Positions 9,401 to 33,848 of a stretch of 41,144 nt of DNA are shown here, piece by piece (within the stretch, counting starts at the first letter, position 1; each line of letters starts with the position of its first letter). The DNA is taken from contig JACQQD010000002.1 in assembly GCA_016207165.1 (NCBI GenBank), forward strand, positions 1 through 41,144. The letters run 5' to 3'. Origin of the DNA: Candidatus Micrarchaeota archaeon. Lineage in GTDB: Archaea > Micrarchaeota > Micrarchaeia > Norongarragalinales > Norongarragalinaceae. The notes under the pieces are model-generated. The model had not been told where the DNA came from. It did no database searches and saw only the letters and a program-made list of their open reading frames with translations. The position numbers and the translations under genes were made by a program.

Positions 9401-10201
9401 CACGTCGTCTATAACGTGCAAGTACGCGGCGTAGAGCTTGTCGTCGACTCCCCGCACCAAATCAAGCACCTTGAAACTGCTTGTGGGCGTCACCGCGAAA
9501 TCCAATTCCAATGAACCCGCGGTAGAACGGGCGAGTGGAACCGATGACAACTCAAGTGGTTTGGCAGTTGAAGTGGTTATGGAGCCGCCGGAAGCAAACG
9601 ACTTAGGGGTCAACGGCAATTGGCTGGTTTCTCGTACTTCTTTTTTCAAATCAAATGCCCATTGCAGTTCGTTTCTTCCATCGGGATTACCTAGCCTTCC
9701 GTCTAAGTATTTCAGGATATCGTCAGTCGTGAACGTGTGTTTGGAAATCCGTTTACCGGTCTTGGAGTCCACGCGTCCCTTTTTTTGGACTTCGACCTCG
9801 ATGGGCAGATACTGGTCATAGCCGCCGGGTCGAAGTGAGTCAAACCAGCTCTGCGGGCGGTTCAAACTGACCAATGCGCCAGTAGGCGTATTGCCGAGGT
9901 CATTCCCCCAAATGGTTACACTGGCTCCTTTGGGAACCGAAAAAATTCGAACCGGAGCAAAACTGTTACGCAAGCCGATTTCTTTGAGGAATTTTACATG
10001 CTCTGCCACGTACTGTCGGTAATCCACATACCCGGAAGGAAACTTGACAATCACGAGTTTGCCGCTGTCAAAAGTATCCGTGCGAAGGTCTTCCTTTTCA
10101 ATCACCGTTACATCCAATTTGGCAGCAGAGGTCATGGATACTAAGAGCAAAACCACGAACAAGAGCAACGCAAAACGGGGCAGGCCGTTAGTTAAGTTCA
10201 T
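6491..10201 (-). CDS. Large secreted protein (1236 aa) with a beta-propeller-like scaffold; paralogue of the 21753-25460 protein
   Basis: Start reassigned to ATG 10201 (MNLTNGLPRFALLLFVVLLLVSMTSAA, Sec signal peptide), overlapping the upstream stop. Colinear motif matches to the 21753-25460 product. Confidence 0.8.
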   Translation of the reverse strand: MNLTNGLPRFALLLFVVLLLVSMTSAAKLDVTVIEKEDLRTDTFDSGKLVIVKFPSGYVDYRQYVAEHVKFLKEIGLRNSFAPVRIFSVPKGASVTIWGNDLGNTPTGALVSLNRPQSWFDSLRPGGYDQYLPIEVEVQKKGRVDSKTGKRISKHTFTTDDILKYLDGRLGNPDGRNELQWAFDLKKEVRETSQLPLTPKSFASGGSITTSTAKPLELSSVPLARSTAGSLELDFAVTPTSSFKVLDLVRGVDDKLYAAYLHVIDDVETIDGEVNPRQYESFGIAVQEEDQKTWHSLGEVEEVVRHLVFPKTKPGTYKFIQGTDEDGNSIIQERCTTSATSYSGGNFYYALVPSQKGGVTAYYGRSRTAHTIGSDGVASRTRDDSGKPTGEIQCLNPKVTTDSYSYEFNDVKSVHASAQDGWGSPKTEARGDFGLDFLGTIGESAYFKRSSGDRSCITPMGFGTPICKTEEDAKNQVFSVPSPVENGKFEERPYPVENPFGQNLFLRLPQYTLSNTYEKVVRKDTVLTQLQGGQFVDKVRFGNGKFFGFDVKTFFDGDGDLHMAMQGPQGFYYQFEPKSTFQENAYPTYQKVYVFHPPGKACPTCEFLSQSNVPFEENPKTVTQKVADAVRDELSLILDDQGIALVYIDKAGKNHDKTFRGEYPDRVGLAKVLGLRLDPIKVRETSGAPIWDAPRIFAVYADDEGAPVVAIKEPEYAKKITQYAFDDEAAHRGLAWTESTELAYQGSNPTLRGWPAPADQGDLELITSMSYTPFTYQIPGANRPSYGSVTEYAVHTTRGESRPVGKPRFGIPGQVSKISANGKTVLPFPGKATAQLTSRPSMTHHVDACPSELEAGHLCVVNGLIKAHVAKNSQLTVSVSGTTGQIAQFALSPETRVDEGGSIYVRLTDVSDPTGGQPVGTLTELPAVNLILVGDKEGKLMLADESYREGVDGDLTLLSNALLADVDLARTIDGKTYEQLQSEIPGLSRTAFLIMKKKSTFNGALSIREWVFMAKELQSNRGFSFLDVSRIMLWKLVYEKVNEPTSFDALFNQKPGFSEDQMAAVYAYMPRILSDSRKDAVADLAPFYARIVAGDLSSRSPGEFGAGLVREQWIKLGYGFKKDETPFYADEALAAYVMVRKKAVVMSWPAWHIEMDSPRRYESLAGVYSGAHVYQRLNDYPGALYYSVLDEYLESMDFEAANTRAEIGGGRRISSLVGPSDQFAMHSIDSRTVGLT

Positions 10202-12635
10202 AGGTTTTTCCCTCGACGTTGATTTCAGACTCGTAATCGGCGGCCGGGCCCAACAAGACGATTTCCAGGCCGTTGTTGTACAATGCTTCAATGGTGGCGG
10301 GTTGCAAGAGTTCCGGTTCGTGTTCAATCACGAAAATCGTGGGGTAGTCGCCTACGGTTTCCGTGGAGACGTCGTGGTAGGAAACCACGTCGACGCGCGG
10401 GAAATTGCTTTGCATGTCGGTCACGAATTGCTGTTCGTGGGGCGAGAGGTTCTGCGTGTCGTACACGACGAGCACGGCAACGGGGAATCCTTCGCCGAAG
10501 GTTTCAATGGGTTGCGGCGAAGGCGACGGAGTGGGGGATGGGCTGGCTTCGGGCGTCGGCGTGGCGTCGGCATCCAGTGCGCCTGGGTTGCACCAGAACT
10601 TGACTCCGAACAATTCCGCCACGCATTGGAAGTCTTCTTGCTGGCGTTCTTCGGGTATTTCAAGTCCTTGGCAGAACAAGCCCACCCCGCCTACTTTCAA
10701 GAAGCAGTCGCGGTGGCGGTCAATGCCTTCCTCGTCGATGGGCAACTGTTCGCAGAGAAAGTCGGCGCCTCCCAAGGAAATGGCGCAGTCGCGCGGCTCA
10801 GGAGTGTCCACGCAGGTGCCCATGTAGAAGACTGCAAAGCCGGCGCGTTGCGCCTGACAGGCGTTGGAGTACGTCTGGCCGTTGACGGCGCACACGGGGT
10901 CAAACACGTCGGAGCAGGGCGTGGGTTGAACGGAAGGCCGAATGCTGGGTCCAGGGGTGGAAGTGGGGAAAGCGGATGGAAACGGGGTTGGAGTGACGCT
11001 GGGCGCGGCCCGTGGAACGCAGATGGGGGCCACCGGGCAACCTTGGGCGTCGGTTTGGCCGTTCGGATACGTCAGTTCAGCGTTGATGCAGTCCGGCATG
11101 GCGATGGGCGGGCAAACCGGTGTTGGAGAAGGACTGGGGGACGGACGGGGAGAAGGAGTAGGAACGGCCGAGGGAGCGGTTTCAGGTTGGGGCGTTGGAG
11201 TTGAACCTCCACCGCCGCTTCCAAAGTTCTGGGACGTAGTGGAAAAGGTGAGTTGGGCCGTGGAGTTGCAGGCGTTCAACGTCGTGCAACTGGTGACGCG
11301 GTAATAGTACGGCGTGGCGATGGAGAGGCTGGATAAACCGAGGACTTGGGCGGCTTGGAACGCGGCGCTGGAGGCGACGAGGCCAAAAGTGGACGTGGTG
11401 CCGTAGCGCACTGAAGCGTTGGAAGACAGCGAAGTCGTCCACTCAATGGCGGCGGAAGCGTGGGAAATGGAGGTGGCCGCCACGGAAGTAAGCACCGGGA
11501 AGTAGACGACGAAGGTGGTGGCGGAAGTCAACGGCAGGGAGGCGTTGGCGTAGAAAGCCAGATGATCGGAGGAATTCACCACCAAGTTGTACGGCGTGTA
11601 ATTGGTTTGGTTGGTGCCGTAGACTTGGGATCCGTTCTGGAAGTATTCGGTGAGGTTCTGGGTGGTAAAGCCGGTGGCGTTGGAAGCCAAGCTGAAGTTG
11701 GCGGTGGCGGAACCAAATGACGAGAGGTTGGCGGTGAATCCAGCCAACGCGCCGCCGGTGTTGGAGACGTTGACGTGGACCGTCCAGTTGACGGTGATGT
11801 TGCTGGACGCGTTCTGGAACAGGAGGCTGGTCTTGTTGAAAATCACGTCATGCAAAAACAGGGGCGAGTTGCCGAGGAGCTGGAAATCGCTGTAATTGAC
11901 GCTGGACGTGTTGCCAGTGATGTTCAAGCCGGAGAGCCGGTTGTTGTTGCCCAGCAAGTCAAACACCATGGAGCGGTTGGAACTGTTGTAAATGGTGTCC
12001 TGCCAGAACAAGTTGCCGGTTGAAGACTGGTTCATGGAGACGCCGACGTAGTTGCGGTTCAAGTAGTTTCGGCTGAACGTGAAGTTCGTCACGTTGTCCA
12101 AGTCAAAGCCGCCGCTGGAGAAGGTTTGCTGGAGGACGTTGTCTTGGATGGTGTTGTTGGAAAGCGTGGCGTTGATGGAGCCGTCAAAGGCCAGGCCGTC
12201 GGTGAAAGAGTACGAGACGTTGGAGTGCGAGATGTTGCCGTTAAAAGCGGAGCTGATTTCCACGCCGACGGTGTTGTTGTACGACGTGAGGTTGAACACC
12301 GTCCAGTTCGTCACGTTGGTCAACCCGATGCCTTGATTAAAACCCTGGACCCGGCCGTTTTTTACGGTGAAGTTGATGACGTGGGAGGCGTTCACTGCGA
12401 TGGTGTTGGCCGTCAGGTTTCCGGTGACGGTGAATCCGTTCAGGTCCAACAGCACGTTGTTGGAGGTCACGTTGAGGCAGGTATAGTTTTGGATGGTTAG
12501 TGAACCGGTGAGTACGTAGGTTCCGGCCGCTGAAATCGTGTTGCAGGCGGAGACGTCCACGGCGTGAACCGGAGGAGACAAAAGTAAACCAAAAACCAGG
12601 GCCAATAAAGCCAGTGCGGGCCTCGTTTGATGCAT
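10188..12635 (-). CDS. Secreted multidomain surface protein: parallel beta-helix (NosD/PbH1-like), FN3, Pro/Thr linker, Kazal-like module, three Cys hairpins
   Basis: Signal peptide ending PVHA; Asn-rich beta-helix repeats; FN3-type IEWTT...VRYG...YYYRVTS; Kazal-like CSDVFDPVCAVNGQTYSNAC...YMGTC at 10812-10916; many N-x-S/T sequons. Confidence 0.85.
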   Translation of the reverse strand: MHQTRPALALLALVFGLLLSPPVHAVDVSACNTISAAGTYVLTGSLTIQNYTCLNVTSNNVLLDLNGFTVTGNLTANTIAVNASHVINFTVKNGRVQGFNQGIGLTNVTNWTVFNLTSYNNTVGVEISSAFNGNISHSNVSYSFTDGLAFDGSINATLSNNTIQDNVLQQTFSSGGFDLDNVTNFTFSRNYLNRNYVGVSMNQSSTGNLFWQDTIYNSSNRSMVFDLLGNNNRLSGLNITGNTSSVNYSDFQLLGNSPLFLHDVIFNKTSLLFQNASSNITVNWTVHVNVSNTGGALAGFTANLSSFGSATANFSLASNATGFTTQNLTEYFQNGSQVYGTNQTNYTPYNLVVNSSDHLAFYANASLPLTSATTFVVYFPVLTSVAATSISHASAAIEWTTSLSSNASVRYGTTSTFGLVASSAAFQAAQVLGLSSLSIATPYYYRVTSCTTLNACNSTAQLTFSTTSQNFGSGGGGSTPTPQPETAPSAVPTPSPRPSPSPSPTPVCPPIAMPDCINAELTYPNGQTDAQGCPVAPICVPRAAPSVTPTPFPSAFPTSTPGPSIRPSVQPTPCSDVFDPVCAVNGQTYSNACQAQRAGFAVFYMGTCVDTPEPRDCAISLGGADFLCEQLPIDEEGIDRHRDCFLKVGGVGLFCQGLEIPEERQQEDFQCVAELFGVKFWCNPGALDADATPTPEASPSPTPSPSPQPIETFGEGFPVAVLVVYDTQNLSPHEQQFVTDMQSNFPRVDVVSYHDVSTETVGDYPTIFVIEHEPELLQPATIEALYNNGLEIVLLGPAADYESEINVEGKTYELN

Positions 12636-17985: not shown

Positions 17986-20900
17986 CTACGCGGCCACGCC
18001 CAAGAATTGGTCAACTAAGGGAAGCAAGCGCGGCGCCCAATTCAAGTCGCCGTTGACATTCTTAAGACCCCAATCGAACGGATCCGCCATCCACGCTTGG
18101 CCGATTATTTGAGCCTTGCCCTTCACCGTACCGTCTGACGCTTGACGACCGGTAAGGTCTGGACGAGTTGAAAGGTCTTCCAAGAATGTACTTCCACCAG
18201 TGAGGGGAGCCGAAGAAATCTGGTCCAACCGGTTGCGGGCGTTACCTAGAGTCCCACTGAAATCGGTGGCGAAAACTACTTTGAACTCTGCAAGGTAATC
18301 GTCCATCAGGGCAACTGGAACATCGTAATCCCTCACGAAAAGGAAAAAAGTAAGGGATTCATCCGGCGTTGATTTGGTAATCATTAAGGGATCCAAATCA
18401 ATTAAAACCGCCTTTGAATTTGATTTCCGAACAATATAGTTGTCTCCATCCAAATCCAAAATAACGTATCCTTGTCGAGCCAGTTCCGCATCGGCGGCAG
18501 CCACAGAGCGTACGGCCGTTTTCTTGGTTTGCTCGGATCCGGACGCCAAAACCTTTCCAAGGGTCGTCCCCTCAATGTATTCTTGAAAGAAAAGTCCTTG
18601 GCCGTCTTTGAAGTTGTTCCGCTGGCCCTCGACAAATCCATAAGGCTTGGCCGCAAATCCTTTTTTCGACCAAGCTTCAAACAATTCCACTTCCTTGGGG
18701 TGGGTAAAGCCGGTTTTGGCAACCATGACCTTGCTTGAACCGTCCTTGAACAATACGCGAATCAAGTGCACGTCGCGGGAGCCTCCACTGGCCAAGAAAC
18801 CGGGTTTTAACGCATCTCCGACTTCTTTGACTGCTTGAATGGATTTGACGTCATCCAACGCGAAGTAACCGTCCGTAAGGACGCGAATCGTGTCGTCCAA
18901 TTCCGTCGTGAGTTTTCCATTCAATTCCTTGAGGAAATCCAAGCGTTCCGGTGGGTGGTCGCCGTAACGAGCCAGCATGCGGTCAAAGCCTTCCGGGTTG
19001 AACAACGGCTTGCCGTACTTGTACGTTTCCCCGCGGGAGTACACCATGCCCATGACCAACGGAGAATCCCGCATGGAATCCGGGTCTTCGCGGATAAGTA
19101 GTCCGTTGAAGAACTCGGCGTCCCGGCCGAAGACATCCATGTCAGTTGGAATGTCGCTGTCCAAGACGGCGACAAAAGAAGCCGCCCGATGGGACGTTTC
19201 CAAATCGGATTTCTGTTTTTTGAGTGTTACCTCAAGAGAGTCAACCAACTCTTGGTCGCCGGACTTCTTTGCTTCAGCCAAGGCCTCTTCCGTGTTCCTT
19301 ACCAGTTTTTGCTGGAACGTCAACCTCTTGGGTATTGGGTCCAAGGCCGCCTGTACGCCGCCTTGTCTTGGCTTCAAGGTGGTTTCATCGACGACGGTGT
19401 CCAATACCCTCAGCAATTCCGTGGACTGTTCAATGGGCAAAATGGCTTCCAGGTGCTCCTTGAGTTGACGGAATACGACGCGGCTTTGACTGTACTCCCG
19501 CGTTCCTTGTGGGGCTTTTTGAGCGGCTTGGAAGGCCGATCGGAAAACGGATAACTTGTCCTTCAGCGGAACGCTGGGCCCGAAGTACCCGTCCAATGTT
19601 TCCAGGTAATAGCGTTTGGCTCCCACGCCCTTGGCCGGCGCCGCACGCAAGTCCAGTTCCAGTTCAGCGTCATCGGCGGCTTTGACGAAGCGTTCCACTT
19701 GCGCAACCAAGGCTTTGGGGGGTTTGCCTTTGGACACGTATAGGATGCGGTAACTTCCCGCGTCGCCAGGCAAAAGAAGGACGCGGGGGTCGTCAATGGC
19801 GGCGTCAAAGACTTGCTGGACGGCTTGCTGGTGTCGGACTTTGTAGTCGGCGTCGGCCTTGGCGGCCACGTTCGGATCCGGGGACTCCCTGAGGGGGCGC
19901 AGTTCATTCAAATCATTTTTGGCAGTCTCGGCGACGTCGGTGACGATTTTCGTGGTGATGTCGAGGTTGTCTTTTTTGAAGCGTTTTGCCAGGACTTTGC
20001 CCCAGTTGGATGGGTTCACGATTTTTCCGGCGGCATTCTTGAGGGGTTCCACGAATTGCTTGCGCCACGCGGTGGACGCGGAGGCGGGGTCTGAGGAGGC
20101 CTTGACGGGATCCGCGGCTTGTTGGGCGGGCGTGCGCTCGGCAACGGGTTCCTCGTTGAGTTTGACGGTGCCGCCTTCCGGCTCGACTTTGGCCGGCGCG
20201 GTGACTGGGCCGTCAGGTCCCTCGGCGCCCTTGGCTTTGGCGGCCTTGATTTTGACGTGCAGGGCGTCGTAGGCGTTGGCGCCCAAGTCCAGGACGAAGG
20301 TGGAGACTTGGCAGATGTTGAAGATGCGTTCGCCGACCGGCATTTCATGCCATTTCGTGGCGAGGTCTCGGGTTTGCGTGTACGTGTCGTAGAATCCTTT
20401 GGCCAGCATGGTGGACAGCAGGATGGCGCCGCCGACTTTCAAGACGGGCGGGCCTTTGGCGACGAGTTGGGAGCCGTACACGACGCCTCGGCTGATGGCG
20501 ACGCCCACGACTTCGCCCATGGCGCACGATTGAATCGCTTCAACACCTTGGCTGAGGTATTTGAAGTCCTTGTTGAGCTGGATTTTGGCGAAGTTGTCCG
20601 AATAGAACCGTTTTTCGAGGATGTCGGTGAGGATGAGTTTCTGGGCGGCCGTCATCTGGCCGACGCCCTTGTAGTTCTCCTGTTTCTTGTTCAGCATCGA
20701 CCAATTCAAGGCGTATTCGTGGTCGAGGAACTCGCTGGCTTCCAAGACACGTCGGACGGCGGTGCGGCGGTGGGGTTCGGAGTTCTGGGAAGTGCCGTAC
20801 ATGTAGAGGTCCATGTACGAGGGGTAAATCGAGTACCCGGTTTGCATGAAGACGTCGCCGCCTTCCATGGCCATTCCCATCCGGATGAAGTTTTCCCGAA

Positions 20901-21756
20901 CGTCCTTTATGGTGGCCCCGTTGCTTCCGGCGGAAAGGCACGGCGTGTTCAGCAGGAGGGAATCCGGGGGCAACTCGCGGCGCTTGGCGTAGGCGTACAA
21001 CAGCCCGAGGGGGGCGTCGGATTTGAGGCATTGGGCGAAGGTGCGAATGCCCAGGACGTCGTCACCGGTAAGGGTGGTGGCGGCCAAGTAGATGCGGAGT
21101 TCGGAATCGACGCTGTAGCGGTGCTTGAGGCGGCCGAATTCCAGGTGGGTGCTGATGCCGAAGCGCTTGTGGCGTTGGGCGGCAAAGTAAATGGTGTTGG
21201 CCACTTTTTCCTCCAAAAACGCGTCGGAAGGCGTTTGCTTGGTGCGATACGCCTGGATTACGGCGGACAAGACGGGGTTGAACTTGTACTCGTCTTCCAC
21301 TTGGGCAAGGCTGGCAACCGGCGTGCCTGAGACGAAGGCGATGTCGCCGGTCTTGAACTGGCGGAATCCCACGAAGCCTGGCAAGTCCGCGCATTTCAGT
21401 TCGTAGCCTTGCCCGTCTTGCCGGAGGGGCGGGCTGGCGATTTCGTCCCAAACCGCTTGAAGTTTTTCACTGGAGTTGTCGGTTTTGCTCAGGCAGTCCC
21501 GAATGCCGGCAATGGCGTCCAAGTTGTCTTTGATGCGTTGGCTGGCCACGTCTTCTTCGTAATCCATGGCCAGAACGCCCATGAACACGTTGAATTCTTC
21601 GACGTTGTCGCCGTAGAGTTCCTTGAGGAAGGCGTGTTCGATGGCCAACTGCTTCAAGGCTTTTTCGTTGAACGCCTTGTAATTGAAGTCCTCGGCCGCG
21701 GATGCCGTGGTGGCGATCAACAAAAGGAAAACCAGTGCGGGCAAGATTTTTTTCAT
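17986..21756 (-). CDS. Secreted 1256-aa protein with a C-terminal protein-kinase-like domain (polymorphic-effector-like layout)
   Basis: Signal peptide MKKILPALVFLLLIATTASAA; central Gly-rich hydrophobic helices; kinase motifs LASGGSRDV, VAK, FFQEYIEG, VILDLDGDNYIV and LIDLD. ATGA overlap with the upstream gene. Confidence 0.82.
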   Translation of the reverse strand: MKKILPALVFLLLIATTASAAEDFNYKAFNEKALKQLAIEHAFLKELYGDNVEEFNVFMGVLAMDYEEDVASQRIKDNLDAIAGIRDCLSKTDNSSEKLQAVWDEIASPPLRQDGQGYELKCADLPGFVGFRQFKTGDIAFVSGTPVASLAQVEDEYKFNPVLSAVIQAYRTKQTPSDAFLEEKVANTIYFAAQRHKRFGISTHLEFGRLKHRYSVDSELRIYLAATTLTGDDVLGIRTFAQCLKSDAPLGLLYAYAKRRELPPDSLLLNTPCLSAGSNGATIKDVRENFIRMGMAMEGGDVFMQTGYSIYPSYMDLYMYGTSQNSEPHRRTAVRRVLEASEFLDHEYALNWSMLNKKQENYKGVGQMTAAQKLILTDILEKRFYSDNFAKIQLNKDFKYLSQGVEAIQSCAMGEVVGVAISRGVVYGSQLVAKGPPVLKVGGAILLSTMLAKGFYDTYTQTRDLATKWHEMPVGERIFNICQVSTFVLDLGANAYDALHVKIKAAKAKGAEGPDGPVTAPAKVEPEGGTVKLNEEPVAERTPAQQAADPVKASSDPASASTAWRKQFVEPLKNAAGKIVNPSNWGKVLAKRFKKDNLDITTKIVTDVAETAKNDLNELRPLRESPDPNVAAKADADYKVRHQQAVQQVFDAAIDDPRVLLLPGDAGSYRILYVSKGKPPKALVAQVERFVKAADDAELELDLRAAPAKGVGAKRYYLETLDGYFGPSVPLKDKLSVFRSAFQAAQKAPQGTREYSQSRVVFRQLKEHLEAILPIEQSTELLRVLDTVVDETTLKPRQGGVQAALDPIPKRLTFQQKLVRNTEEALAEAKKSGDQELVDSLEVTLKKQKSDLETSHRAASFVAVLDSDIPTDMDVFGRDAEFFNGLLIREDPDSMRDSPLVMGMVYSRGETYKYGKPLFNPEGFDRMLARYGDHPPERLDFLKELNGKLTTELDDTIRVLTDGYFALDDVKSIQAVKEVGDALKPGFLASGGSRDVHLIRVLFKDGSSKVMVAKTGFTHPKEVELFEAWSKKGFAAKPYGFVEGQRNNFKDGQGLFFQEYIEGTTLGKVLASGSEQTKKTAVRSVAAADAELARQGYVILDLDGDNYIVRKSNSKAVLIDLDPLMITKSTPDESLTFFLFVRDYDVPVALMDDYLAEFKVVFATDFSGTLGNARNRLDQISSAPLTGGSTFLEDLSTRPDLTGRQASDGTVKGKAQIIGQAWMADPFDWGLKNVNGDLNWAPRLLPLVDQFLGVAA

Positions 21757-24700
21757 GCGGACGGCACTCCAATCATTTCAATAAACTTGTCCCTATCGCT
21801 TTTCACGCCGCCGGGGGTTGCATACGACCATTGAGGCAATAAGGAAGTTGGAAGCGATATGGTGCGGGAGTCAAAGGCCAGCCAATTCTGGGTTCGCGGG
21901 ACTTTCAACGCCATTTCGTAGACTTGGCCGGGTTCCAGGGCCACGTCGAAGCCCCCGAAGACCACGTTGCAGGCGCCGAGGCGGTTGTCATCCAAGTCGT
22001 CAAACACGGCGGTGCGCAACACCATTTTTTCGGTGTAACCGTTGGGATATAGTTCCGAGACCGTGGAACCGGGCTGCGCGTTGATGTGTTCCACGTGAGT
22101 GGATACCAATTCTTCAAAGGCGTTCAGGGCTTGCTGGGCTTGGAAGCAATACAATGCATTTCCCGCGGCGTCCTTGAAGGTGACGGGTTCCTCGATTTTT
22201 TCCAGTTGCTCGGCCAAGACGTCTTTTTTGGACCAATACGTATCGCCTTGCGGCAAGTCTTGAACCTTCAGGGTAAGGGTTTGCCGCGTGTCTTTGCCGT
22301 CGATGGCCACTTTGCACGACGCGTTTTGCGCGGAGGCGTCGACGAGCTTGATGGAGTTGGCGGGCATGGACTCCGAAAACAGGGAGCCGCAGGAAAGAGT
22401 GACTGTCCGCGGATAGTTGTTGACCAGCGTGATTTGTTTCTTGGCGGCGTTCTTGTCGGAGCGGTAAAACGCGAGGTTTTCGGGGGCAACGTACGCCAAG
22501 TCTTCCCGCACGACGTGGCGGACGGGCACGGAAAGCGGCGTGTCGCTGCTTAACTCGCCGGATTCCACGGTGAAGGTTCCCCGGACTTGTTTAACGTCAA
22601 GCAACCCGCCGGAATAGCGGTTTTTGGCTTCGACTTTTACGTCGGCGTACCACTTGTTTTGCGCGTCTTTTTTCACTTGGGCGCTGACAATTCCGGGAGC
22701 GGCCTCCACTGAAACCGTGGGCGCGGTTTCGGTTTGGATGGGCAGTTCCAGGCGGTAGTGCTGGAAGGGGACCAGTTCCGACAAGGCGTTGGCGAGGGTG
22801 GGTTCGTCAGGCACCAAGGATTTTTTGACGGTGTACAAGTCGTAGTTGGTGATGGCTTGGGACAAAATGGTGTAGGAGCTGGACCCGCAGGCGTTGGTTT
22901 TCCAGTAGCTTTCCGCTTTGTTGGTGGAGGCGGGAATCAGGAGGCTGATTTTGTCCTCGCTTTGACCCAGTGTGGGCCCGATGAAGGCCGTGTTGGACTC
23001 CAATTGTTTTTCGACGGTGAACAGCACGCTGGTATTCCACGTTTCGTCGTTTCGCACGTACTGGACGACTTCCTGCGTCTCGTTTTCAACGAGAATGGCG
23101 GGTGCGTTGTCCGGCTTGAGGTACAGCGACGGGTACAAGTGGGAGGTGTAGGCCGGAGTCCCGCTGCGTTTGGGGCGGTTGTACGAGTCCACTAGCTTGG
23201 GGTCGGCGGCGTACGGCGCGGAATCGGTTCCGGAAAGAACGGTTGCCGGAACCACGCCGTGGTACAAGTTGACTTGCGGCGAACTGATGGTTCCCACGTA
23301 ATATGTGTAGGCAAGGTTGCCTTTGCCGTCAAAAGCCGTGCGCGCGTCGGAACTGGGCAGGGAAAGAATCTTGGAGAACACGCCGTTTCGAAGAGCGTAC
23401 AAGGCCGTGTTTCCGGTTTTCCGGGCAAACAGGCTTCCGTCAGGCCCGACCAACATGCTTAGTATCGTGTCGTACGTGGACCCCGAAGTGGGGGGGACGC
23501 CGAAGTAGCCCACCCGCGAAAGTTTTCCGCCCAAATCCGATGACGTCACGTCCTTGGGCACGCCGTCGGAGGCGTACAAGTCCGGGCCGGCGCTGTCGCA
23601 CGTGCTGGCCGAGGAGACGTAAGTGCCTTTTGAAAGGCAGAAGTAGTACTTGCCGTTGCCGGAGCCGACGAACCGCAGGTTTTGCATGGATGACGAGGAT
23701 TCCTTGAGCTTGGAGGCGACGACGAAGTCGTCAATGCCGTCCGGCGTGACGTTCATGGCGCGCAACTCGAAGGTTATCCAGGTTTTTTCCGTGGTGGCCA
23801 GCCCTTCCAGTGGACAGTCGGAAGTGGTGGAGGAACGCGTGTAGTACGACACGCCGTTGATGGTCGTCGTGGTGCAGTAGCTGATGAAGTTGCTGTCGTA
23901 TTGTGAGTAGGACTTGCTTCGGAGTTTGCGACTTTCATAAAAGATGTAGATGCCGGAATCCGGTGCCAGCGCGGCACCCATGAACGACGTGCCGCCGCCC
24001 GCACCCTGGGCGCTGTAGACCTTGGGAGACCCCGACGAGGTCGTGGTGATGACGCCGATTTGCGTGTCCTCGGGTTGGGGCAACCTTTGAGCGCCTAAAT
24101 AGGTCCACGTGCGTCCCTTGTTTTTGGATACGGCCACCGCCGTGACGTCGTAATTGTAATAGCCCGGCCTGGACATGATTTGAACATTGGTGTACTTGGC
24201 GTCCCGGCTGAAGCAAGATTTGTAGTCCTGCGCGTCGGTGCTCCACTTCTTGCTCCCGTCGGATTCCGTGGTGTAAGGAATGGAGCCCGCAGGGCAAATG
24301 ACTGAATTCCCGGAGCCGTACTCATCGCAAAAGGGACACACCCAAACGCCAAACGAGTCTTGTCCAGGAAAGGGGCAATTGCCACCGCTACGATATCCGC
24401 AGGTGGTGACGTGTCGGGAACAGCGGCCCTTGATGTACACGGGTGCGGATGCGGAGGTAAAGCATTCGCCGTCTCTGGTGTCGCACGAGTCTACTTCGTC
24501 ATCGTCGGACAGGTAACAGAACTGGACAGTGGGGCCTGGCAAGGGGGACGTGTCCACCGTGCATTTCGTGATGGCGTCGTAATTGCTTCCGGCTGAGTAA
24601 CCAGGGCGATCTGGGTAATCCACGTGGTAGGCTTCCAATTTCAAAGGCGTATCCTCGTATCCGAGGAATTGCTTGCCTACGGTCTGCGAAGTGCCTTGCA

Positions 24701-25460
24701 ACCGGATGGAGTGCTTGAATACCAGGTACAAGTAGCCGTCTTTGCCGCGAAGCAGGGCCAACACTTGCGTGAGTCCAACGGCCCGGTTTCCGTTGGGGAT
24801 GTTGGAGGCCAACTCCTCCAATGGAAGGGGGTAGTGCGAGGCGGAAAAGCTTTCCGCGTCGGAAGCGGCGGCCGACAAGCCGCCCAACCAAGCCACCATG
24901 AAAACAAGGATCAACGCGAGTGCACGTCGTAACGCCAGCCGTGCAATGCATGAACCCAAGTCCAGCGGTGGGCAAGTGCGTTGGTGGAGGTTGTCTTGCA
25001 GTGGACGGTTGCGCGAATTCGTTTCAGTTGAACCGGATTCAGAAGCGCGTTCGCGGGGCGGTTCTTTGGGCTTGCGGTTTTTCAAGTACAAGTACGCGGC
25101 GCCGCCCACGACGACCAACGCCATCATGAACAGCGCCAAGAGCCCAAAGTCAACGGAGGGCGCTTCGAGATTTGCGTTGGCTTGGCTGGAGGACGCGTCG
25201 GGCGGGAAGTCTTTTTCGAATTGGGCGTTCAAGTCCACGTACCCCTCCGGCAACTCCGGCGGGACCACGGAGGGTTGCACTTCTTCTTCCAGGGGCGGAA
25301 GGACGAATTCGTCGAAAAGCAACGAGTCGGGGCTTGAGGCGGCCATCCAAGGAATCAGAAAGGATGACAAAAGCAAGGCGGTGGAGAGGGCCTTCGTCAA
25401 ATTCATGGGCGTTAAAGCGTACGGCGGCGTTTTCTTTTTGGTTTCGGTAAGGGTCGTCAT
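21753..25460 (-). CDS. Large exported beta-propeller-like protein with a Cys-rich insert
   Basis: 1235-aa ORF (alternative start ATG 25406, MNLTKALS). Asp-box-like VAVSKNKGRTW; repeated beta-strand/turn motifs; three N-terminal hydrophobic segments. Confidence 0.8.
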   Translation of the reverse strand: MTTLTETKKKTPPYALTPMNLTKALSTALLLSSFLIPWMAASSPDSLLFDEFVLPPLEEEVQPSVVPPELPEGYVDLNAQFEKDFPPDASSSQANANLEAPSVDFGLLALFMMALVVVGGAAYLYLKNRKPKEPPRERASESGSTETNSRNRPLQDNLHQRTCPPLDLGSCIARLALRRALALILVFMVAWLGGLSAAASDAESFSASHYPLPLEELASNIPNGNRAVGLTQVLALLRGKDGYLYLVFKHSIRLQGTSQTVGKQFLGYEDTPLKLEAYHVDYPDRPGYSAGSNYDAITKCTVDTSPLPGPTVQFCYLSDDDEVDSCDTRDGECFTSASAPVYIKGRCSRHVTTCGYRSGGNCPFPGQDSFGVWVCPFCDEYGSGNSVICPAGSIPYTTESDGSKKWSTDAQDYKSCFSRDAKYTNVQIMSRPGYYNYDVTAVAVSKNKGRTWTYLGAQRLPQPEDTQIGVITTTSSGSPKVYSAQGAGGGTSFMGAALAPDSGIYIFYESRKLRSKSYSQYDSNFISYCTTTTINGVSYYTRSSTTSDCPLEGLATTEKTWITFELRAMNVTPDGIDDFVVASKLKESSSSMQNLRFVGSGNGKYYFCLSKGTYVSSASTCDSAGPDLYASDGVPKDVTSSDLGGKLSRVGYFGVPPTSGSTYDTILSMLVGPDGSLFARKTGNTALYALRNGVFSKILSLPSSDARTAFDGKGNLAYTYYVGTISSPQVNLYHGVVPATVLSGTDSAPYAADPKLVDSYNRPKRSGTPAYTSHLYPSLYLKPDNAPAILVENETQEVVQYVRNDETWNTSVLFTVEKQLESNTAFIGPTLGQSEDKISLLIPASTNKAESYWKTNACGSSSYTILSQAITNYDLYTVKKSLVPDEPTLANALSELVPFQHYRLELPIQTETAPTVSVEAAPGIVSAQVKKDAQNKWYADVKVEAKNRYSGGLLDVKQVRGTFTVESGELSSDTPLSVPVRHVVREDLAYVAPENLAFYRSDKNAAKKQITLVNNYPRTVTLSCGSLFSESMPANSIKLVDASAQNASCKVAIDGKDTRQTLTLKVQDLPQGDTYWSKKDVLAEQLEKIEEPVTFKDAAGNALYCFQAQQALNAFEELVSTHVEHINAQPGSTVSELYPNGYTEKMVLRTAVFDDLDDNRLGACNVVFGGFDVALEPGQVYEMALKVPRTQNWLAFDSRTISLPTSLLPQWSYATPGGVKSDRDKFIEMIGVPSA

Positions 25461-25463
25461 GCG

Positions 25464-27023
25464 TCAATCACTTGAATCGGTTTCAGGGGTTTGGCAGATG
25501 AAAGGCGACGAAGCCAAAAGCGGGTTTTCCTTCAAGCAGGAAAGGCCCGCGCAGCAGGTGCCGCCGGAAAACACGCCGCACTGCCTGCCTTCAACGCGGC
25601 ACGCCGTATCCTCGACAGGCTCTTCGCCGACGTTGACCAACTCAATGGGCGGTTCGGGAGTCGGTAAAACCAGTTCGCCGTCGAAATAGGAAATGGCGGA
25701 ATCCGCGTCAACCAGCGTGACGCCGGCAAGCAGGTCGGAGAGTTCTTCTGGACTTGGGCTGGGCGACGGGGAGGGACTGGGTGAAGGGCTGGTGGGCGCG
25801 CACACCGTGGAAAACCCGTCCAATTGACAGGACAATGCTTGGCAGCACGAAATGCTTCCAGGGAGAATGCCGCATCCTTGGGCTTGCGGCACGCAGGAGA
25901 GTTCTCCGGAAGGGGAAGAATCCGTTTGCGATGAAGGAGGAGCTTGACAGCCCAAGCGGATGCCAAACGCGTCCAGCGCGCACCCGGCGCCTTTGGGCCG
26001 CACCCAGACACCAAAATCCTCGCGCACGGGCGTTTGCGACGAGCCGACGGCCGCCATGGCGGCATCTGCAGAGGAAGCGTCAATTCCGGCGCCCGTTTTC
26101 AGCCGGACTACTACGTCAAAAGCGGAACCAGACTTGAATTTCGTCGCATCCCAAAAAAGCCGTGACGCGCCGGGAACGCCTTCAAGCGCTTGAATGGTGG
26201 CAGGCCGGGGGAACACGGAACCGAATCCTTCAACTCCGGCTGGCAACAGGACGGCGAGGCCGCCGGAGTAATCCGTTGGCGCGGCAAATGAAAGCAGGGC
26301 GAACCGGCTGCCGTCGGGGCGCTGCAGGACAAAGAACGTGGTGCGGGAGTCCAAGGACCGTTCTAAAACAAGGGTGGATGAGGATCGCAAGTCCGCCGGA
26401 GACGGAATTTCTTCTTTGGAGGCCAAAGCGATTTGCTCGGCGTCCGCTCCCGCATCTTTTCCTGGAAGCACTTTCAAGTTGCCGGTGGGCAAGTCGGAAA
26501 ACGAGTAGGCGAAGCGGTCGTCGGAGACTTTGGACACGGCCACGGGTTCAACGGAAGCCGAGGCGTCCCCAGTCACCGAGAAAAACGAGTACGTGCCGGG
26601 CGGCAGCAGGATGGAAATCGAGTAGGCCGGCGGTGACGCGCCGGAATCAAACGACCACACCGAAGCGGACGCATCCAAAAGCGAGAACGAGAGGCCCGGC
26701 GCTCCCAAAAGCGTGCCCGAACCCCCGACTGGCACAAAAAACGCGTCCGGGTTAAAGTCCGCGCAGTCGCAACGCGTCTCTTGCGGAACGCTTAACGCCG
26801 TGAACAAATTGCCGGGCCGAAACGATCCGGAAGCGTCAGAACACTGCGAGTCCACGACCGCCGCCGCCCGGCATTGTTTTAATTCCAAGTCAGACAAGCC
26901 GGTGGCGGACTGCTGGAAGTTAGACTGGAGAACCAAAACGGCGACCACGACCACCAGCAACGCCCCGCCTAAGAGAAGAACGTATTCAAACGTTCCTTGT
27001 CCCCGTCGCGTGGATGTGGCCAC
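25464..27023 (-). CDS. Class III signal peptide (archaeal pilin-type) protein with a Cys hairpin and two knottin-like modules
   Basis: RRG|QGTFEYVLLLGGALLVVVVAVLVL is a prepilin-peptidase (EppA-type) site with Q at +1 and E at +5. GTG 27023 is the likely start. C-x6-C-x7/8-CC-x4-C-xn-C occurs at 25800-25895 and 25494-25601. Confidence 0.85.
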   Translation of the reverse strand: MATSTRRGQGTFEYVLLLGGALLVVVVAVLVLQSNFQQSATGLSDLELKQCRAAAVVDSQCSDASGSFRPGNLFTALSVPQETRCDCADFNPDAFFVPVGGSGTLLGAPGLSFSLLDASASVWSFDSGASPPAYSISILLPPGTYSFFSVTGDASASVEPVAVSKVSDDRFAYSFSDLPTGNLKVLPGKDAGADAEQIALASKEEIPSPADLRSSSTLVLERSLDSRTTFFVLQRPDGSRFALLSFAAPTDYSGGLAVLLPAGVEGFGSVFPRPATIQALEGVPGASRLFWDATKFKSGSAFDVVVRLKTGAGIDASSADAAMAAVGSSQTPVREDFGVWVRPKGAGCALDAFGIRLGCQAPPSSQTDSSPSGELSCVPQAQGCGILPGSISCCQALSCQLDGFSTVCAPTSPSPSPSPSPSPSPEELSDLLAGVTLVDADSAISYFDGELVLPTPEPPIELVNVGEEPVEDTACRVEGRQCGVFSGGTCCAGLSCLKENPLLASSPFICQTPETDSSD

Positions 27024-31243: not shown

Positions 31244-33817
31244 TTAGCGGTTGCCGCCGCCGAACAGGTTGGACAGGAACGACAGGATGCCGGAGGCGCC
31301 TTGTTCCTTGGATTCCGCGCGGGCTCCCAAACTCACCTGTTGCTGCTCCAAGTCCAAAATCTGGGCGTCCAAAATCGCGGCGGCATTGGCGTCATCCACC
31401 TGCTCACGCAGTTGCTTGAGGCGCTCGATGGTACCAGCCAGTCGCTCGCTTTGCTCTTTAATGAGCTCCGCGTCCTTGCGTTCCTGCTCGGCCTGCAAGC
31501 CAATGATTTGCGTCAACGCGTACAAGACGTCTTTCTGGTTGACTTTCTGCAGGTTCTCATCGGTTTCCGCCACGTTGTCCGACTCGAAGTCCAACAGGGG
31601 TTGCAGGGATGGGGGAACAAGGTCCCGAATTTCTTGGAGTTTGGAGGCTCGGCGTTCAAAGTCCCTAAGCTTGTCTGGATCGGGGCTTCGGGCAAACTCG
31701 CGGCATCCGCGGGCCACGGCCTTTTCGACGGCGGGGCGGATTTGGTCGGGTTGCGTGAGTTCCTCGCACCGTGCCAATTGCTTTCTTCCAAACTCGCAGC
31801 CGCGCTCGGTTTCTTTCAGGCATTGTTCCTTTCCGCGGCCCGTGTCCTTGCAGTAGCGCTCCAAGTCGCGGAGCATCCGCTTGGACTCCAGCTCGCAGAT
31901 GCGGCCAAAGTCAATGCGCTCGCGTTCCTTTTGCATGTACTTCTGCTGTTCTTGGCGGCAGAACGCAACAAAAGAGTCCTTGCTACAGGGGTTGAATTGG
32001 GGGCCTTGCTGTTGCATGCGGGAACACTCGCGTTCGAATCGGGGTTGTTGTTGTTGCCATTCCTGTTCGCACCGCTCGGAAGCGCTGATCTGTCCGGTGA
32101 TGAAAGCCGTGAACGGCGAGGAAGCAACTTGGGCTTGCGTCGTGGGAGAAGGCCACGCCGTTGGAGACGGATAAGGCTCACCACTTGGAGACGGATAAGG
32201 CCCAGCCGTGGGAGAAGGCCACGCCGTAGGCGAAGGAGCGGTTGGGTACTGGCACTGGTAATACGTGCAACCGCTTTGCTGGACGGTGCTCACCGTGCCG
32301 CCACCGCTTAGACACGACTGCTTGTACGCCTCATCCAAAGAGGGACACGTCGGCCCGGAAGTTGGAGAAGGCCACGCCGTTGGAGACGGATAAGACCCTG
32401 CCGTGGGAGAAGGCCACGCCGTTGGAGACGGATAAGGCGTTGTGCCGGACGCACCCTGGCATTGCACGTAAATGCATCCGTCGTGGGAGTTCTCGGACCA
32501 CGTGCCGCCGCCACCGGTACAGGTATTCTTGGCTTGTTGGCGTTCGGCATCGGAAGGACAATACTTTCCGGTCTGGGGGTAGGGGGAACTGGTGGGCGGA
32601 GTGGTTTGGCCGTATTTGCAGACGATGTTAAAGACGCATCCGTTGCGGTCCGTCTGTTTTTCGGCGAATCCGCCGGTGGACTGGCAGTTGTCATACCAGG
32701 CTTGCGGGAGTTGGGGGCCGGAGGGGCACTGGCGTTGAATGGGTTGGGGCTGGCCTTTGTTGTAGTCTCCGTATGGTGGCTGGCCGGGTTGGCCTTCAGG
32801 GGGTTGGCCGGGGTAGGGTTGTTCGTATCCTGAACTGCGCTCCAGGCACTGGGAAATGAACTTGTCCTTGCTGCAGAATTCCGGCAACCTGATTTGGCCG
32901 CCCTCGCACTGCTGGCTGAAGTGGCCTTGCTCGAATTCCCAGCGGACTTCGCAGTCGTCGTCCAAGTCCTGTTCGCGCTCCGAAAAACCGCGGCTGAATT
33001 CCTTTTCCATGCGGCTCTTACAGGCGGAAAGGATTTGTGCCTTGTCCGGCGGACAACTGAATGAAAACGCTTCTTCCTCGCCTGGCGGGCCGAATCGGGG
33101 TCCGCCGAATTCGGGGTTGCCAATCATTTCGCATTGTTTTTTGCCTTCTTCGCAGTACTCCAGGCCGTTCTTGATTTCGGAGCAGAATTCCTTATTGAGG
33201 TCCAAACCACTTTGCTGGAATTCGGAGAGCACCAAATCGACGAGTTCGGGTTGGTTGTCGCACTTGGCTTTCAGGTTTTCTTCGCCGTATTTCTGCATCA
33301 TTTTTTCGCCGATGAGTTTAAACACGCCGAATCCGACAAATGCGGGGTCATCGCTTAAACCTTCAAACCCGCCAAAAGCGCGGTAGTCTTGGGGGCCAAA
33401 CGACGGGCCGCGGCCTTGGGGTCCGTAGCCGGGTTGGCCGAAATCACTGGGCCCGTAGTCGGGGGATTGATCCAAGTCGCGGTCGTTGGGTCCGCGGGGG
33501 CCAACGGAGTCGCGTTCGCTGTAATCCGGTCCGCCGTTTCGCTCGATGTATCCGCCTTGTCCGCCGCCATAACCGGGGCCCAGGGGAAGGGGTCCTTGGG
33601 GTCCGTCTTTGACTTCGGTGTCCGGCCTAAAATCGTTTCCAAAGGGGTCCAAGCGGCCTTGAATGTCAGCGATTCGCTCGCCGGCAAAACCTTTTTTCTG
33701 TTGCTGATCGGCTTGCACCGCGGCGGCCACTTGCGCGTCGGTGGGGCCTTCGGCCGCTACAACCAAACCGCTGCCAACCAGCAGCGCGAAAACGATGAAC
33801 ACCGACAAGCCCTTCAT
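31244..33817 (-). CDS. Secreted Cys/Gln/Pro-rich hypothetical protein with YPSPTAWPSPT repeats and a coiled-coil C-terminus
   Basis: Signal peptide MKGLSVFIVFALLVGSGLVVAA from ATG 33817; three C...C..GG...GC....C modules; amphipathic tail ILSFLSNLFGG. Confidence 0.85.
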   Translation of the reverse strand: MKGLSVFIVFALLVGSGLVVAAEGPTDAQVAAAVQADQQQKKGFAGERIADIQGRLDPFGNDFRPDTEVKDGPQGPLPLGPGYGGGQGGYIERNGGPDYSERDSVGPRGPNDRDLDQSPDYGPSDFGQPGYGPQGRGPSFGPQDYRAFGGFEGLSDDPAFVGFGVFKLIGEKMMQKYGEENLKAKCDNQPELVDLVLSEFQQSGLDLNKEFCSEIKNGLEYCEEGKKQCEMIGNPEFGGPRFGPPGEEEAFSFSCPPDKAQILSACKSRMEKEFSRGFSEREQDLDDDCEVRWEFEQGHFSQQCEGGQIRLPEFCSKDKFISQCLERSSGYEQPYPGQPPEGQPGQPPYGDYNKGQPQPIQRQCPSGPQLPQAWYDNCQSTGGFAEKQTDRNGCVFNIVCKYGQTTPPTSSPYPQTGKYCPSDAERQQAKNTCTGGGGTWSENSHDGCIYVQCQGASGTTPYPSPTAWPSPTAGSYPSPTAWPSPTSGPTCPSLDEAYKQSCLSGGGTVSTVQQSGCTYYQCQYPTAPSPTAWPSPTAGPYPSPSGEPYPSPTAWPSPTTQAQVASSPFTAFITGQISASERCEQEWQQQQPRFERECSRMQQQGPQFNPCSKDSFVAFCRQEQQKYMQKERERIDFGRICELESKRMLRDLERYCKDTGRGKEQCLKETERGCEFGRKQLARCEELTQPDQIRPAVEKAVARGCREFARSPDPDKLRDFERRASKLQEIRDLVPPSLQPLLDFESDNVAETDENLQKVNQKDVLYALTQIIGLQAEQERKDAELIKEQSERLAGTIERLKQLREQVDDANAAAILDAQILDLEQQQVSLGARAESKEQGASGILSFLSNLFGGGNR
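32145..32436. repeat. Intragenic 31-bp repeats encoding YPSPTAWPSP
   Basis: GGAGAAGGCCACGCCGTTGGAGACGGATAAG is exact at 32145-32175, 32364-32394 and 32406-32436, with partial copies around 32185-32227. Confidence 0.9.
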
Positions 33818-33848
33818 GCACAAACGCCCCCGCGAACTTTTCAAAGGT

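Follow-up and report, generated by a model that had tools for sequence, protein, structure and literature searches.

Several described systems resemble parts of the locus reported here. Modular type IV pilins are known, for example PilB of Streptococcus sanguinis (PMC8179133). Archaeal proteins with a class III signal that do not form filaments, both substrate-binding and large adhesin-like ones, were reported to be widespread, and large adhesin-like proteins also occur in some pilus loci (PMC13705601). In Thermococcales, a gene module with a hypervariable immunoglobulin (Ig) protein was proposed to have a role in recognition or conflict (PMC8416519). How DPANN archaea recognise and manipulate host cells is largely unknown. 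Here we analysed a complete contig of 41,144 bp (C2, the window) from an archaeal genome of 1.27 Mb that is rated 90% complete. Three open reading frames (ORFs) on its minus strand, P1, P2 and P3, form what we read as two genes, an adhesin gene and the gene of an exported partner protein with a kinase domain. By its predicted signal the adhesin is a member of the class III-signal surface proteins, and its gene stands outside any pilus operon. We tentatively propose that the two genes work together in cell contact, as a lineage-restricted module in which a modular-pilin adhesin is paired with an exported kinase. The pair was not described in the main texts of the literature searched (supplements may contain family lists), and it provides named and testable candidates.

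The initial annotation described three minus-strand ORFs with a 3-bp gap and an ATGA overlap, and these coordinates and spacings were all borne out. The TGA stop of P1 (25464-25466) is followed by the 3 bases CGC and then by the ATG of P2, and the P2 stop and the P3 start share the ATGA. Since homologues are known and the frames are long, P1, P2 and P3 are by all indications genuine genes rather than chance ORFs. Export signals were also correctly called on all three, class III on P1, signal-like on P2 and Sec-type on P3. The three-gene unit itself did not survive. A single frame spans P1, the TGA, one codon (CGC) and P2, and in relatives P1 and P2 are one ORF, hence this is a two-gene unit. 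What had been taken for an adhesin and a separate receptor-binding subunit are two parts of a single ancestral protein. The earlier interpretation was partly supported: its domain calls (weakly for the propeller), coupling and gene order stood, and its three-subunit make-up fell.

Four loci of G002, a species of the same genus, carry the adhesin as a single uninterrupted frame (1629-1774 codons), and in L130, an independent metagenome contig, it is one ORF of 1790 aa. P1 aligned to residues ~25-625 of the fused G002 frames with 29-33% identity. The C-terminal part of P2 (~340-480 aa, within residues 784-1232) shared 34-39% identity with the corresponding ends of the fused frames in G002, and the middle of the adhesin was divergent in the alignment between the window and the fused relatives. 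P2 was 57% identical to protein P0041 across ~1000 aa.

The adhesin 3' end is readable at 7 loci, and at 6 of them a P3-like start comes next: the window, G002 C9, C70, C22 and C20, and L130. At the remaining one, G002 C47, a repeat comes after the adhesin in place of a P3-like start. The start and stop overlap by 4 bases in G002 C9 and by ATGA in L130; C22 and C20 hold short 5' pieces only. Proteins P0041 and P0019 make an additional pair, as they have consecutive locus tags on one 4461-bp contig, which brings the paired loci to 7. The gene order is conserved, and the tight coupling described by the initial annotation is also seen beyond the window. The P3 family is rare. Its profile found 38 proteins at E<=0.001 among 1,835,955,588 representatives, and about 18 of the 38 were collinear family members, some of them partial. 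The family was present in 2 of 401 genomes of the phylum by profile and in 2 of 41 relatives by single protein query. It was not found in G001, the third species of the genus (rated 89% complete), and a word-based protein search with P3 returned only itself (1 of 7997 candidates scored). G002 holds at least 5 copies of each gene and the window genome one. The gene pair probably serves contact with another cell.

Next, we looked at the kinase-like domain that ends P3, a call that proved sound. In the P3 model (residues 22-1200, 18 sequences in the alignment), the mean predicted local distance difference test (pLDDT) was 76. With VIA-align, the kinase matched Bud32 (4ww7_A) at Z 14.9, with a root-mean-square deviation of 3.3 and 207/237 residues aligned, and RIO kinases at about 11. 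A Foldseek-independent search also ranked Bud32 first (4ww5_A, Z 14.4), then aminoglycoside and methylthioribose kinases. Foldseek itself gave 99 matches at E<=0.001, including RIOK2, Bud32, WaaP, PknB and the PI3K-related kinases mTOR and Tel1. The residues K1014, D1101, N1106 and D1120 were invariant in all six paralogues aligned, which share only 17-29% identity (alignment A1). In the alignment with the true kinase P0034 (hhalign probability 89%) they fall on its hinge, its catalytic loop and its metal-binding Asp, and this Pkinase protein was also matched by the P3 family profile (E 8e-7). The invariant catalytic Lys, Asp-x4-Asn and metal-binding Asp point to catalysis, which needs ATP.

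At the level of sequence, the kinase had no Pfam match, and its NCBIfam PrkT score was 11.9 bits (E 0.082) against a cut-off of 280. A sequence profile search of the PDB with the kinase part or the N-terminal domain gave nothing relevant, and hhalign of the kinase profile against the G002 RIO kinase gave a probability of 0.1%. Judged by modelled fold and residues, the P3 kinase is a member of the protein-kinase-like superfamily with Bud32/RIO as its nearest branch, and by the sequence searches it is outside every curated family. The kinase is constant across the P3 family and the modules beyond it vary. An HD domain follows it in four scanned sequences (G002 C9, C53, P0004 and P0008), which are two distinct proteins because P0004 and P0008 are 99.9% identical to C53 and C9. 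A GlnD_UR_UTase module was found in P0018, and other proteins had C-terminal extensions without a family match. The variable modules after the kinase, together with the many paralogues in G002, fit an effector-like logic. More distant relatives, P0027-P0036, are 2060-2147 aa long. A signal comes first in them, then a PEGA domain and hydrophobic segments at ~1440-1510, and their C-terminal part is related to the P3 kinase region (E 4e-12 to 4e-5).

All full-length P3 family members inspected start with a Sec-type signal, which in P3 is MKKILPALVFLLLIATTASA. Five Cys of P3 are invariant in alignment A2 (C88, C243, C273, C411 and C482 in protein numbering). For the N-terminal domain the Atlas gave weak leads (PT-TG and Tle1-like_C, 0.85-0.87, with few shared features), which we did not rely on. 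Signals and membrane segments were judged by Kyte-Doolittle windows. In 15 of the 17 family members that cover the region, the peak of hydrophobicity after the signal is at ~400-470, in the region of the Gly-rich helices (~411-500). The values there were 1.15-1.96, and a membrane span of P3 is uncertain because only 3 of the 17 reached 1.6. The distant relatives P0037 and P0039 had 1.71-1.75 at the corresponding place.

To see on which side of the membrane the two halves of P3 reside, we compared their composition. In each half, N-glycosylation sites (N-x-S/T) fell about ninefold short of the number predicted from composition, with 4 observed vs 38 expected in the N parts of the family and 7 vs 62 in the C parts. 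They were below expectation in 17/17 C parts and 16/17 N parts, the N part of the window protein being level (2 vs 2.0). The controls were not depleted (1046 vs 910 expected in the long ORFs of the genome, 26 vs 26.0 in 15 housekeeping neighbours), and the genome has an STT3/AglB gene and is thus able to glycosylate; two other secreted proteins of the window are rich in such sites (see below). The C parts were also poor in Cys (0.21%), compared with 1.34% for the N parts and a genome value of 1.07%. A cytoplasmic domain would have no evident reason to avoid glycosylation sites, and therefore the export of the kinase part is favoured. These results suggest that the whole of P3, kinase half included, is exported. 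The HD-carrying members P0004 and L039:13309-18903 both terminate in ...TTCA[NH]GC[NS], a tail that places two Cys at the extreme C-terminus and is otherwise rare among the Cys-poor C parts.

The product of the adhesin gene would start with a class III signal and a pilin module, followed by a domain without an assigned fold and by two modules with Cys-knot spacing set in Pro/Ser/Thr linkers. It would continue into a beta-propeller with a Cys-rich insert and end in a conserved beta-rich region. The class III signal on P1, already noticed from the sequence alone, was well supported. The P1 N-terminus matches PF04021 with 27.2 bits, above the curated cut-off of 23.7, and with 31.7 bits in the genome search. 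Its leader, MATSTRRG↓QGTFEYVLLLGG..., is short and basic with Gly at the cut site, and the helix has a Kyte-Doolittle value of 3.03. The class III signal motif is Q-x-[ST]-x-E-x-x-x-L, and QGTFEYVLL after the Gly fits it. Over ~65-73 residues the P1 N-terminus was also 50-58% identical to two small pilin ORFs of 118 aa on contig C8, both of which adjoin an ATPase and two platform genes. Because of the PF04021 match and this identity, we take P1 to hold a complete pilin-like module. P1 would then be cleaved by a prepilin peptidase and may associate with a pilus. A Peptidase_A24 prepilin peptidase is encoded elsewhere in the genome at C1:24372-24695, as are pilus ATPases, platform proteins and small pilins, with ATPase, platform and pilin genes on C8. 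The machinery that the initial annotation wanted to see outside the window is therefore present. The genome encodes one more large protein with a class III signal (G000:C1:6587-10735, plus strand, 1383 aa), which has the same QGTFEYVLLLGG helix and is without P2-like or P3-like parts.

Among the fused relatives scanned, 3 contain one or two modules with the six-Cys C-C-CC-C-C spacing. For P1 no Pfam knottin family matched at E<=0.1; of the proposed disulfide-rich knottin modules, the spacing is thus confirmed and the family membership is not. In P2 the Cys-rich insert is there, and the propeller call found weak support. The model of P2 residues 200-1235 had low confidence (pLDDT 48), and its top structural matches, over model residues 13-637, had propeller titles, with Z 9.6-11.9. 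One Asp-box-like motif, SKNKGRTW, is present in a single copy and is kept in most relatives. Repeated S-x-D-x-G-x-T-W motifs were not found in P2, Pfam BNR did not match, and weak Atlas leads (BNR_4 and He_PIG, 0.76-0.79) were not relied on. A propeller with a Cys-rich insert is plausible but weakly supported by this model. The C-terminal region is conserved, with a mean column identity of 53% among 6 sequences (alignment A5), and its model reaches a pLDDT of ~70-79 in places. Word-based searches with it returned 3 proteins in one case and 4 in another. A complex prediction of this part with the P3 N-terminal domain scored 0.22 (mark 0.32) and gives no verdict. The fused, putatively exported adhesins L045 (G002:C47, residues 1187-1214), L040 (G002:C70) and P0042 contain a glutaredoxin-like C-P-x-C stretch, for which the C47 adhesin is slightly below the cut-off of Pfam Glutaredoxin (E 1.4e-4, 22.4 bits). 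The window P2 is without it.

We then examined the TGA that divides the adhesin gene. Recoding is unlikely because TGA is the most frequent stop codon of the genome and closes 383 of its 814 long frames. We also rejected an assembly slip, since contigs of three sequencing runs have identical letters across the TGA (the runs are from one study, and one of them, X1, may be the source). The linker between the last Cys module and the propeller has ~40-60 aa in relatives vs ~225 aa in this genome. The inserted segment was estimated at ~170-185 aa. Within the region lie the TGA, the new start of P2, a signal-like stretch and hydrophobic segments. Both strongly hydrophobic segments of P2 are absent from the fused relatives by Kyte-Doolittle values. 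The segment does not seem to be borrowed from a paralogue, as a search of this genome found no match to it. We read this as a fission of the adhesin gene in which the distal half acquired a membrane-targeting segment for itself. The gene may instead be decaying, or the stop may be read through. If our reading is right, the split adhesin is a clear example of gene fission with gain of targeting signals.

Starting from the gene pair, its domains and its conserved catalytic residues, a course of events can be drawn. The adhesin would be processed by the prepilin peptidase, be located at the surface or on a pilus and bind a partner cell. The entire P3 would be exported through its Sec-type signal and could bind the adhesin, and its hydrophobic helices would enter a membrane. 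The kinase would then act wherever it meets ATP, and the simplest such place is the contacted cell. That the adhesin binds the partner, that P3 inserts through its helices and that the kinase works where it finds ATP is a possibility we take seriously without counting on it. A bolder version would be the first archaeal contact-dependent effector system. There, the conserved end of a DPANN modular pilin adhesin holds a P3 free of glycans and disulfides, P3 inserts in the partner membrane by way of its Gly-rich helices and brings its Bud32/RIO-like kinase, in paralogues along with HD or nucleotidyltransferase modules, to the host cytoplasm, and paralogous cassettes set the range of partners. We regard this version as unlikely.

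Several observations speak against delivery of P3 into another cell. The P3 helices could span the membrane of the producer, with the kinase on the cytoplasmic side of that same cell. These helices are followed by a Lys-rich stretch, and HD and GlnD-like modules are typical of cytoplasmic enzymes. Pilus machinery was absent beside every copy examined (8 related loci and the window). No immunity-like or conserved small downstream ORF was noticed, with no systematic search made. The P2 model is poor, and the TGA could signal that the adhesin is decaying in this genome. The depletion of sites and Cys is a family-wide signal, and the site counts are not independent because the sequences are related. 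In the window P3 the C part has 0 sites vs 2.1-2.3 expected, which is insignificant alone.

The main rival explanation is that P3 is a contact-sensing receptor kinase, with its N-terminal domain outside, perhaps touching the adhesin, an odd number of helix crossings and a kinase that signals inside the producer. Such a topology would agree with the conserved hydrophobic region at 411-500, which is stronger in P0037 and P0039, with the Lys-rich stretch behind it and with the conserved Cys, all of which are N-terminal to this region. ATP is restricted to the cell interior, and in the distant PEGA-domain relatives the signal, hydrophobic segments and kinase-like part come in the same order. However, this explanation leaves the site depletion unexplained, as the C parts are as depleted as the N parts and cytoplasmic controls are not, and Cys in the C parts is five times below the genome average. 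In addition, few members reach the Kyte-Doolittle value of 1.6, and the model has two long helices that would make a hairpin, at low confidence. We therefore consider a receptor kinase doubtful. The same depletion fits any exported P3 and is silent on its final location, which brings in the idea that both products are surface proteins only. The kinase-like domain would then enter no cell, and its role would be binding of a ligand or nucleotide or phosphorylation of a surface substrate. All three ORFs have export signals, the window is rich in large secreted proteins, and propellers and beta-rich domains are typical of surface proteins. Yet the catalytic residues, kept in 6/6 paralogues of such low identity, point to ATP-requiring catalysis, and to our knowledge HD and GlnD-like modules are not surface domains. 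We find this improbable too.

It could also be that the genes are decaying or unrelated, in which case the TGA marks a broken adhesin and the proximity of P3 has no meaning. A single in-frame stop does divide a gene that is intact in relatives, this genome has one copy, and G002 contains truncated copies, with P3-like starts that stop after ~55-75 codons and the repeat at four contig ends. Against this, both halves preserve long frames (519 + 1235 codons), and the 225-codon segment after the stop is open and has signal-like and membrane segments. The start/stop coupling to P3 is kept here, in C9 and in L130, the pairing recurs in at least four sources, and the TGA is present in the contigs of all three runs. 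Decay is thus very unlikely. The cell-contact module accordingly keeps our tentative preference, and it offers two candidates, a pilin-type adhesin that varies among paralogues in its distal parts, and P3, a predicted exported and catalytically intact kinase from an unannotated family. If active in the partner cell, the kinase would represent a new type of archaeal effector. If its signalling takes place within the producer, we would be dealing with an unusual contact-sensing kinase of a reduced genome.

The features of the locus are collected in the table.

Table. Positions of the three ORFs and of their predicted parts in the window (↓, cut site).
Feature	Residues	Position	Strand	Basis or remark
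P1		25464..27023	-	GTG start, 519 aa; proximal half of the adhesin gene
Class III (prepilin-type) signal and hydrophobic helix, RRG↓QGTFEYVLLLGGALLVVVVAVLVLQ		26937..27008	-	PF04021
Knottin-spaced Cys module 1	P1 377-408	25800..25895	-	C-x6-C-x9-CC-x4-C-x8-C
Knottin-spaced Cys module 2	P1 475-510	25494..25601	-	C-x6-C-x8-CC-x4-C-x14-C
P2		21753..25460	-	1235 aa; distal half of the adhesin gene
Genome-specific segment	P2 1-225	24786..25460	-	Signal-like stretch and two hydrophobic segments
Hydrophobic segment	P2 98-127	25080..25169	-	Kyte-Doolittle 2.26
Hydrophobic segment	P2 168-202	24855..24959	-	Kyte-Doolittle 2.27
Propeller-like region	P2 ~212-836	22953..24827	-	Model matches, weak evidence
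Cys-rich insert	P2 ~300-420	24201..24563	-	10 Cys
Conserved adhesin C-terminal region	P2 837-1235	21756..22952	-	Mostly beta strands
P3		17986..21756	-	1256 aa; putative exported partner protein
Sec-type signal peptide	P3 1-21	21694..21756	-	MKK, hydrophobic core, ASA↓AED; Kyte-Doolittle 1.93
All-alpha N-terminal domain	P3 22-410	20527..21693	-	Invariant Cys; pLDDT mostly 75-95
Gly-rich, moderately hydrophobic helices	P3 ~411-500	20257..20526	-	Model pLDDT 30-45
Lys/Pro/Ala-rich linker and helical middle region	P3 501-896	19069..20256	-	Composition, model; without assigned family or fold
Bud32/RIO-like kinase fold	P3 897-1187	18196..19068	-	K1014, D1101, N1106, D1120

In the window the pair is flanked by a phosphoribosyltransferase and an AAA_14 protein. 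The 27 neighbours of 8 related loci were mostly housekeeping genes. Three exceptions were all surface-type or class III: a small class III ORF beside the C9 copy, an Ig/NPCBM-type protein and a carboxypeptidase-regulatory/Kazal surface protein. The window itself is dense in big surface-type proteins. The ORF at 10188-12635 (minus strand) encodes a secreted protein with a beta-helix and a Kazal domain and has 38 glycosylation sites vs 13.8 expected. Another secreted protein, at 35794-40347 (plus strand), has 77 vs 30.3 and a sub-threshold MG2 match (28.1 bits vs 32.8). In their richness in sites both are the opposite of the gene pair. The large ORFs at 31244-33844 and 6491-10327 (both minus strand) have no Pfam family, and one of them has 33 Cys in 866 aa.

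An identical sequence of 134-138 bp is found at four G002 contig ends (C22, C7, C9 and C47; L044:9725-9862, L041:10556-10693, L039:19746-19883 and L045:1-134). In C22 it follows a P3-like start truncated at ~55 codons, in C47 it comes directly after the adhesin gene, and in C7 it is just upstream of a P3-like gene without its ~60 N-terminal codons. It had no match in the window genome (G000). The cassettes may be interrupted here by a mobile element or by a site of recombination. Another kind of giant protein with a class III signal adjoins glycyl-tRNA synthetase in G001:C1 (L137:6351-12876) and G002:C13 (L136:1-2898), with frames of 1420 and at least 966 codons. Only the P1-like proximal part is common to them, at 32-55% identity. 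In G001 the giant protein is followed by a 766-codon frame with a signal-like start. Neither locus has a P2 end or a P3. The position beside glycyl-tRNA synthetase looks like a variable slot for giant class III proteins.

The DPANN setting assumed at the outset is reasonable. The window has the archaeal markers NAC, archease and an archaeal-type glycyl-tRNA synthetase. The best matches of the synthetase (51-55%) were metagenome-assembled genomes labelled Nanoarchaeota, Aenigmatarchaeota, Nanohalarchaeota and Woesearchaeota, with one Bathyarchaeota at 51%. Four relatives of the studied proteins carry the source label 'Candidatus Micrarchaeota archaeon'.

Finally, we compared the pair with the known systems. 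Like the modular pilins (PMC8179133), the adhesin would combine a class III pilin module at its N-terminus with an adhesive module on one chain. In contrast to them it is archaeal, has ~1750 aa with Cys-knot-spaced units and a propeller and is split here, and its gene is away from pilus machinery and is followed by a kinase-bearing partner gene. With the archaeal class III-signal proteins (PMC13705601) it shares a prepilin-type signal on a large surface protein. The adhesins of that report lie in pilus loci, whereas our gene pair is outside them, and the available parts of the report mention no kinase-bearing partner for these adhesins. The Thermococcales Ig module (PMC8416519) is likewise an archaeal locus in which a large variable surface protein is followed by partner genes. 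It has other domains, our pair belongs to a DPANN lineage, and the two were compared by description only.

The P3 kinase resembles Bud32/PRPK and RIO in its fold and in its Lys, Asp-x4-Asn and Asp set. Unlike them, it forms the end of a 1256-aa protein with a Sec export signal, has no Pfam or NCBIfam membership and is found without a KEOPS or ribosome context. The bacterial polymorphic toxin and contact-dependent systems (PMC3482391) resemble it in overall logic, with a conserved N part, C-terminal enzyme modules that here appear to vary, many paralogues per genome and pairing with a large surface protein. Compared with what is described there, P3 has only a Sec signal and no dedicated secretion system nearby, and no immunity gene was noticed beside it, with no systematic search made. 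Moreover, its kinase is constant and only the modules after the kinase vary.

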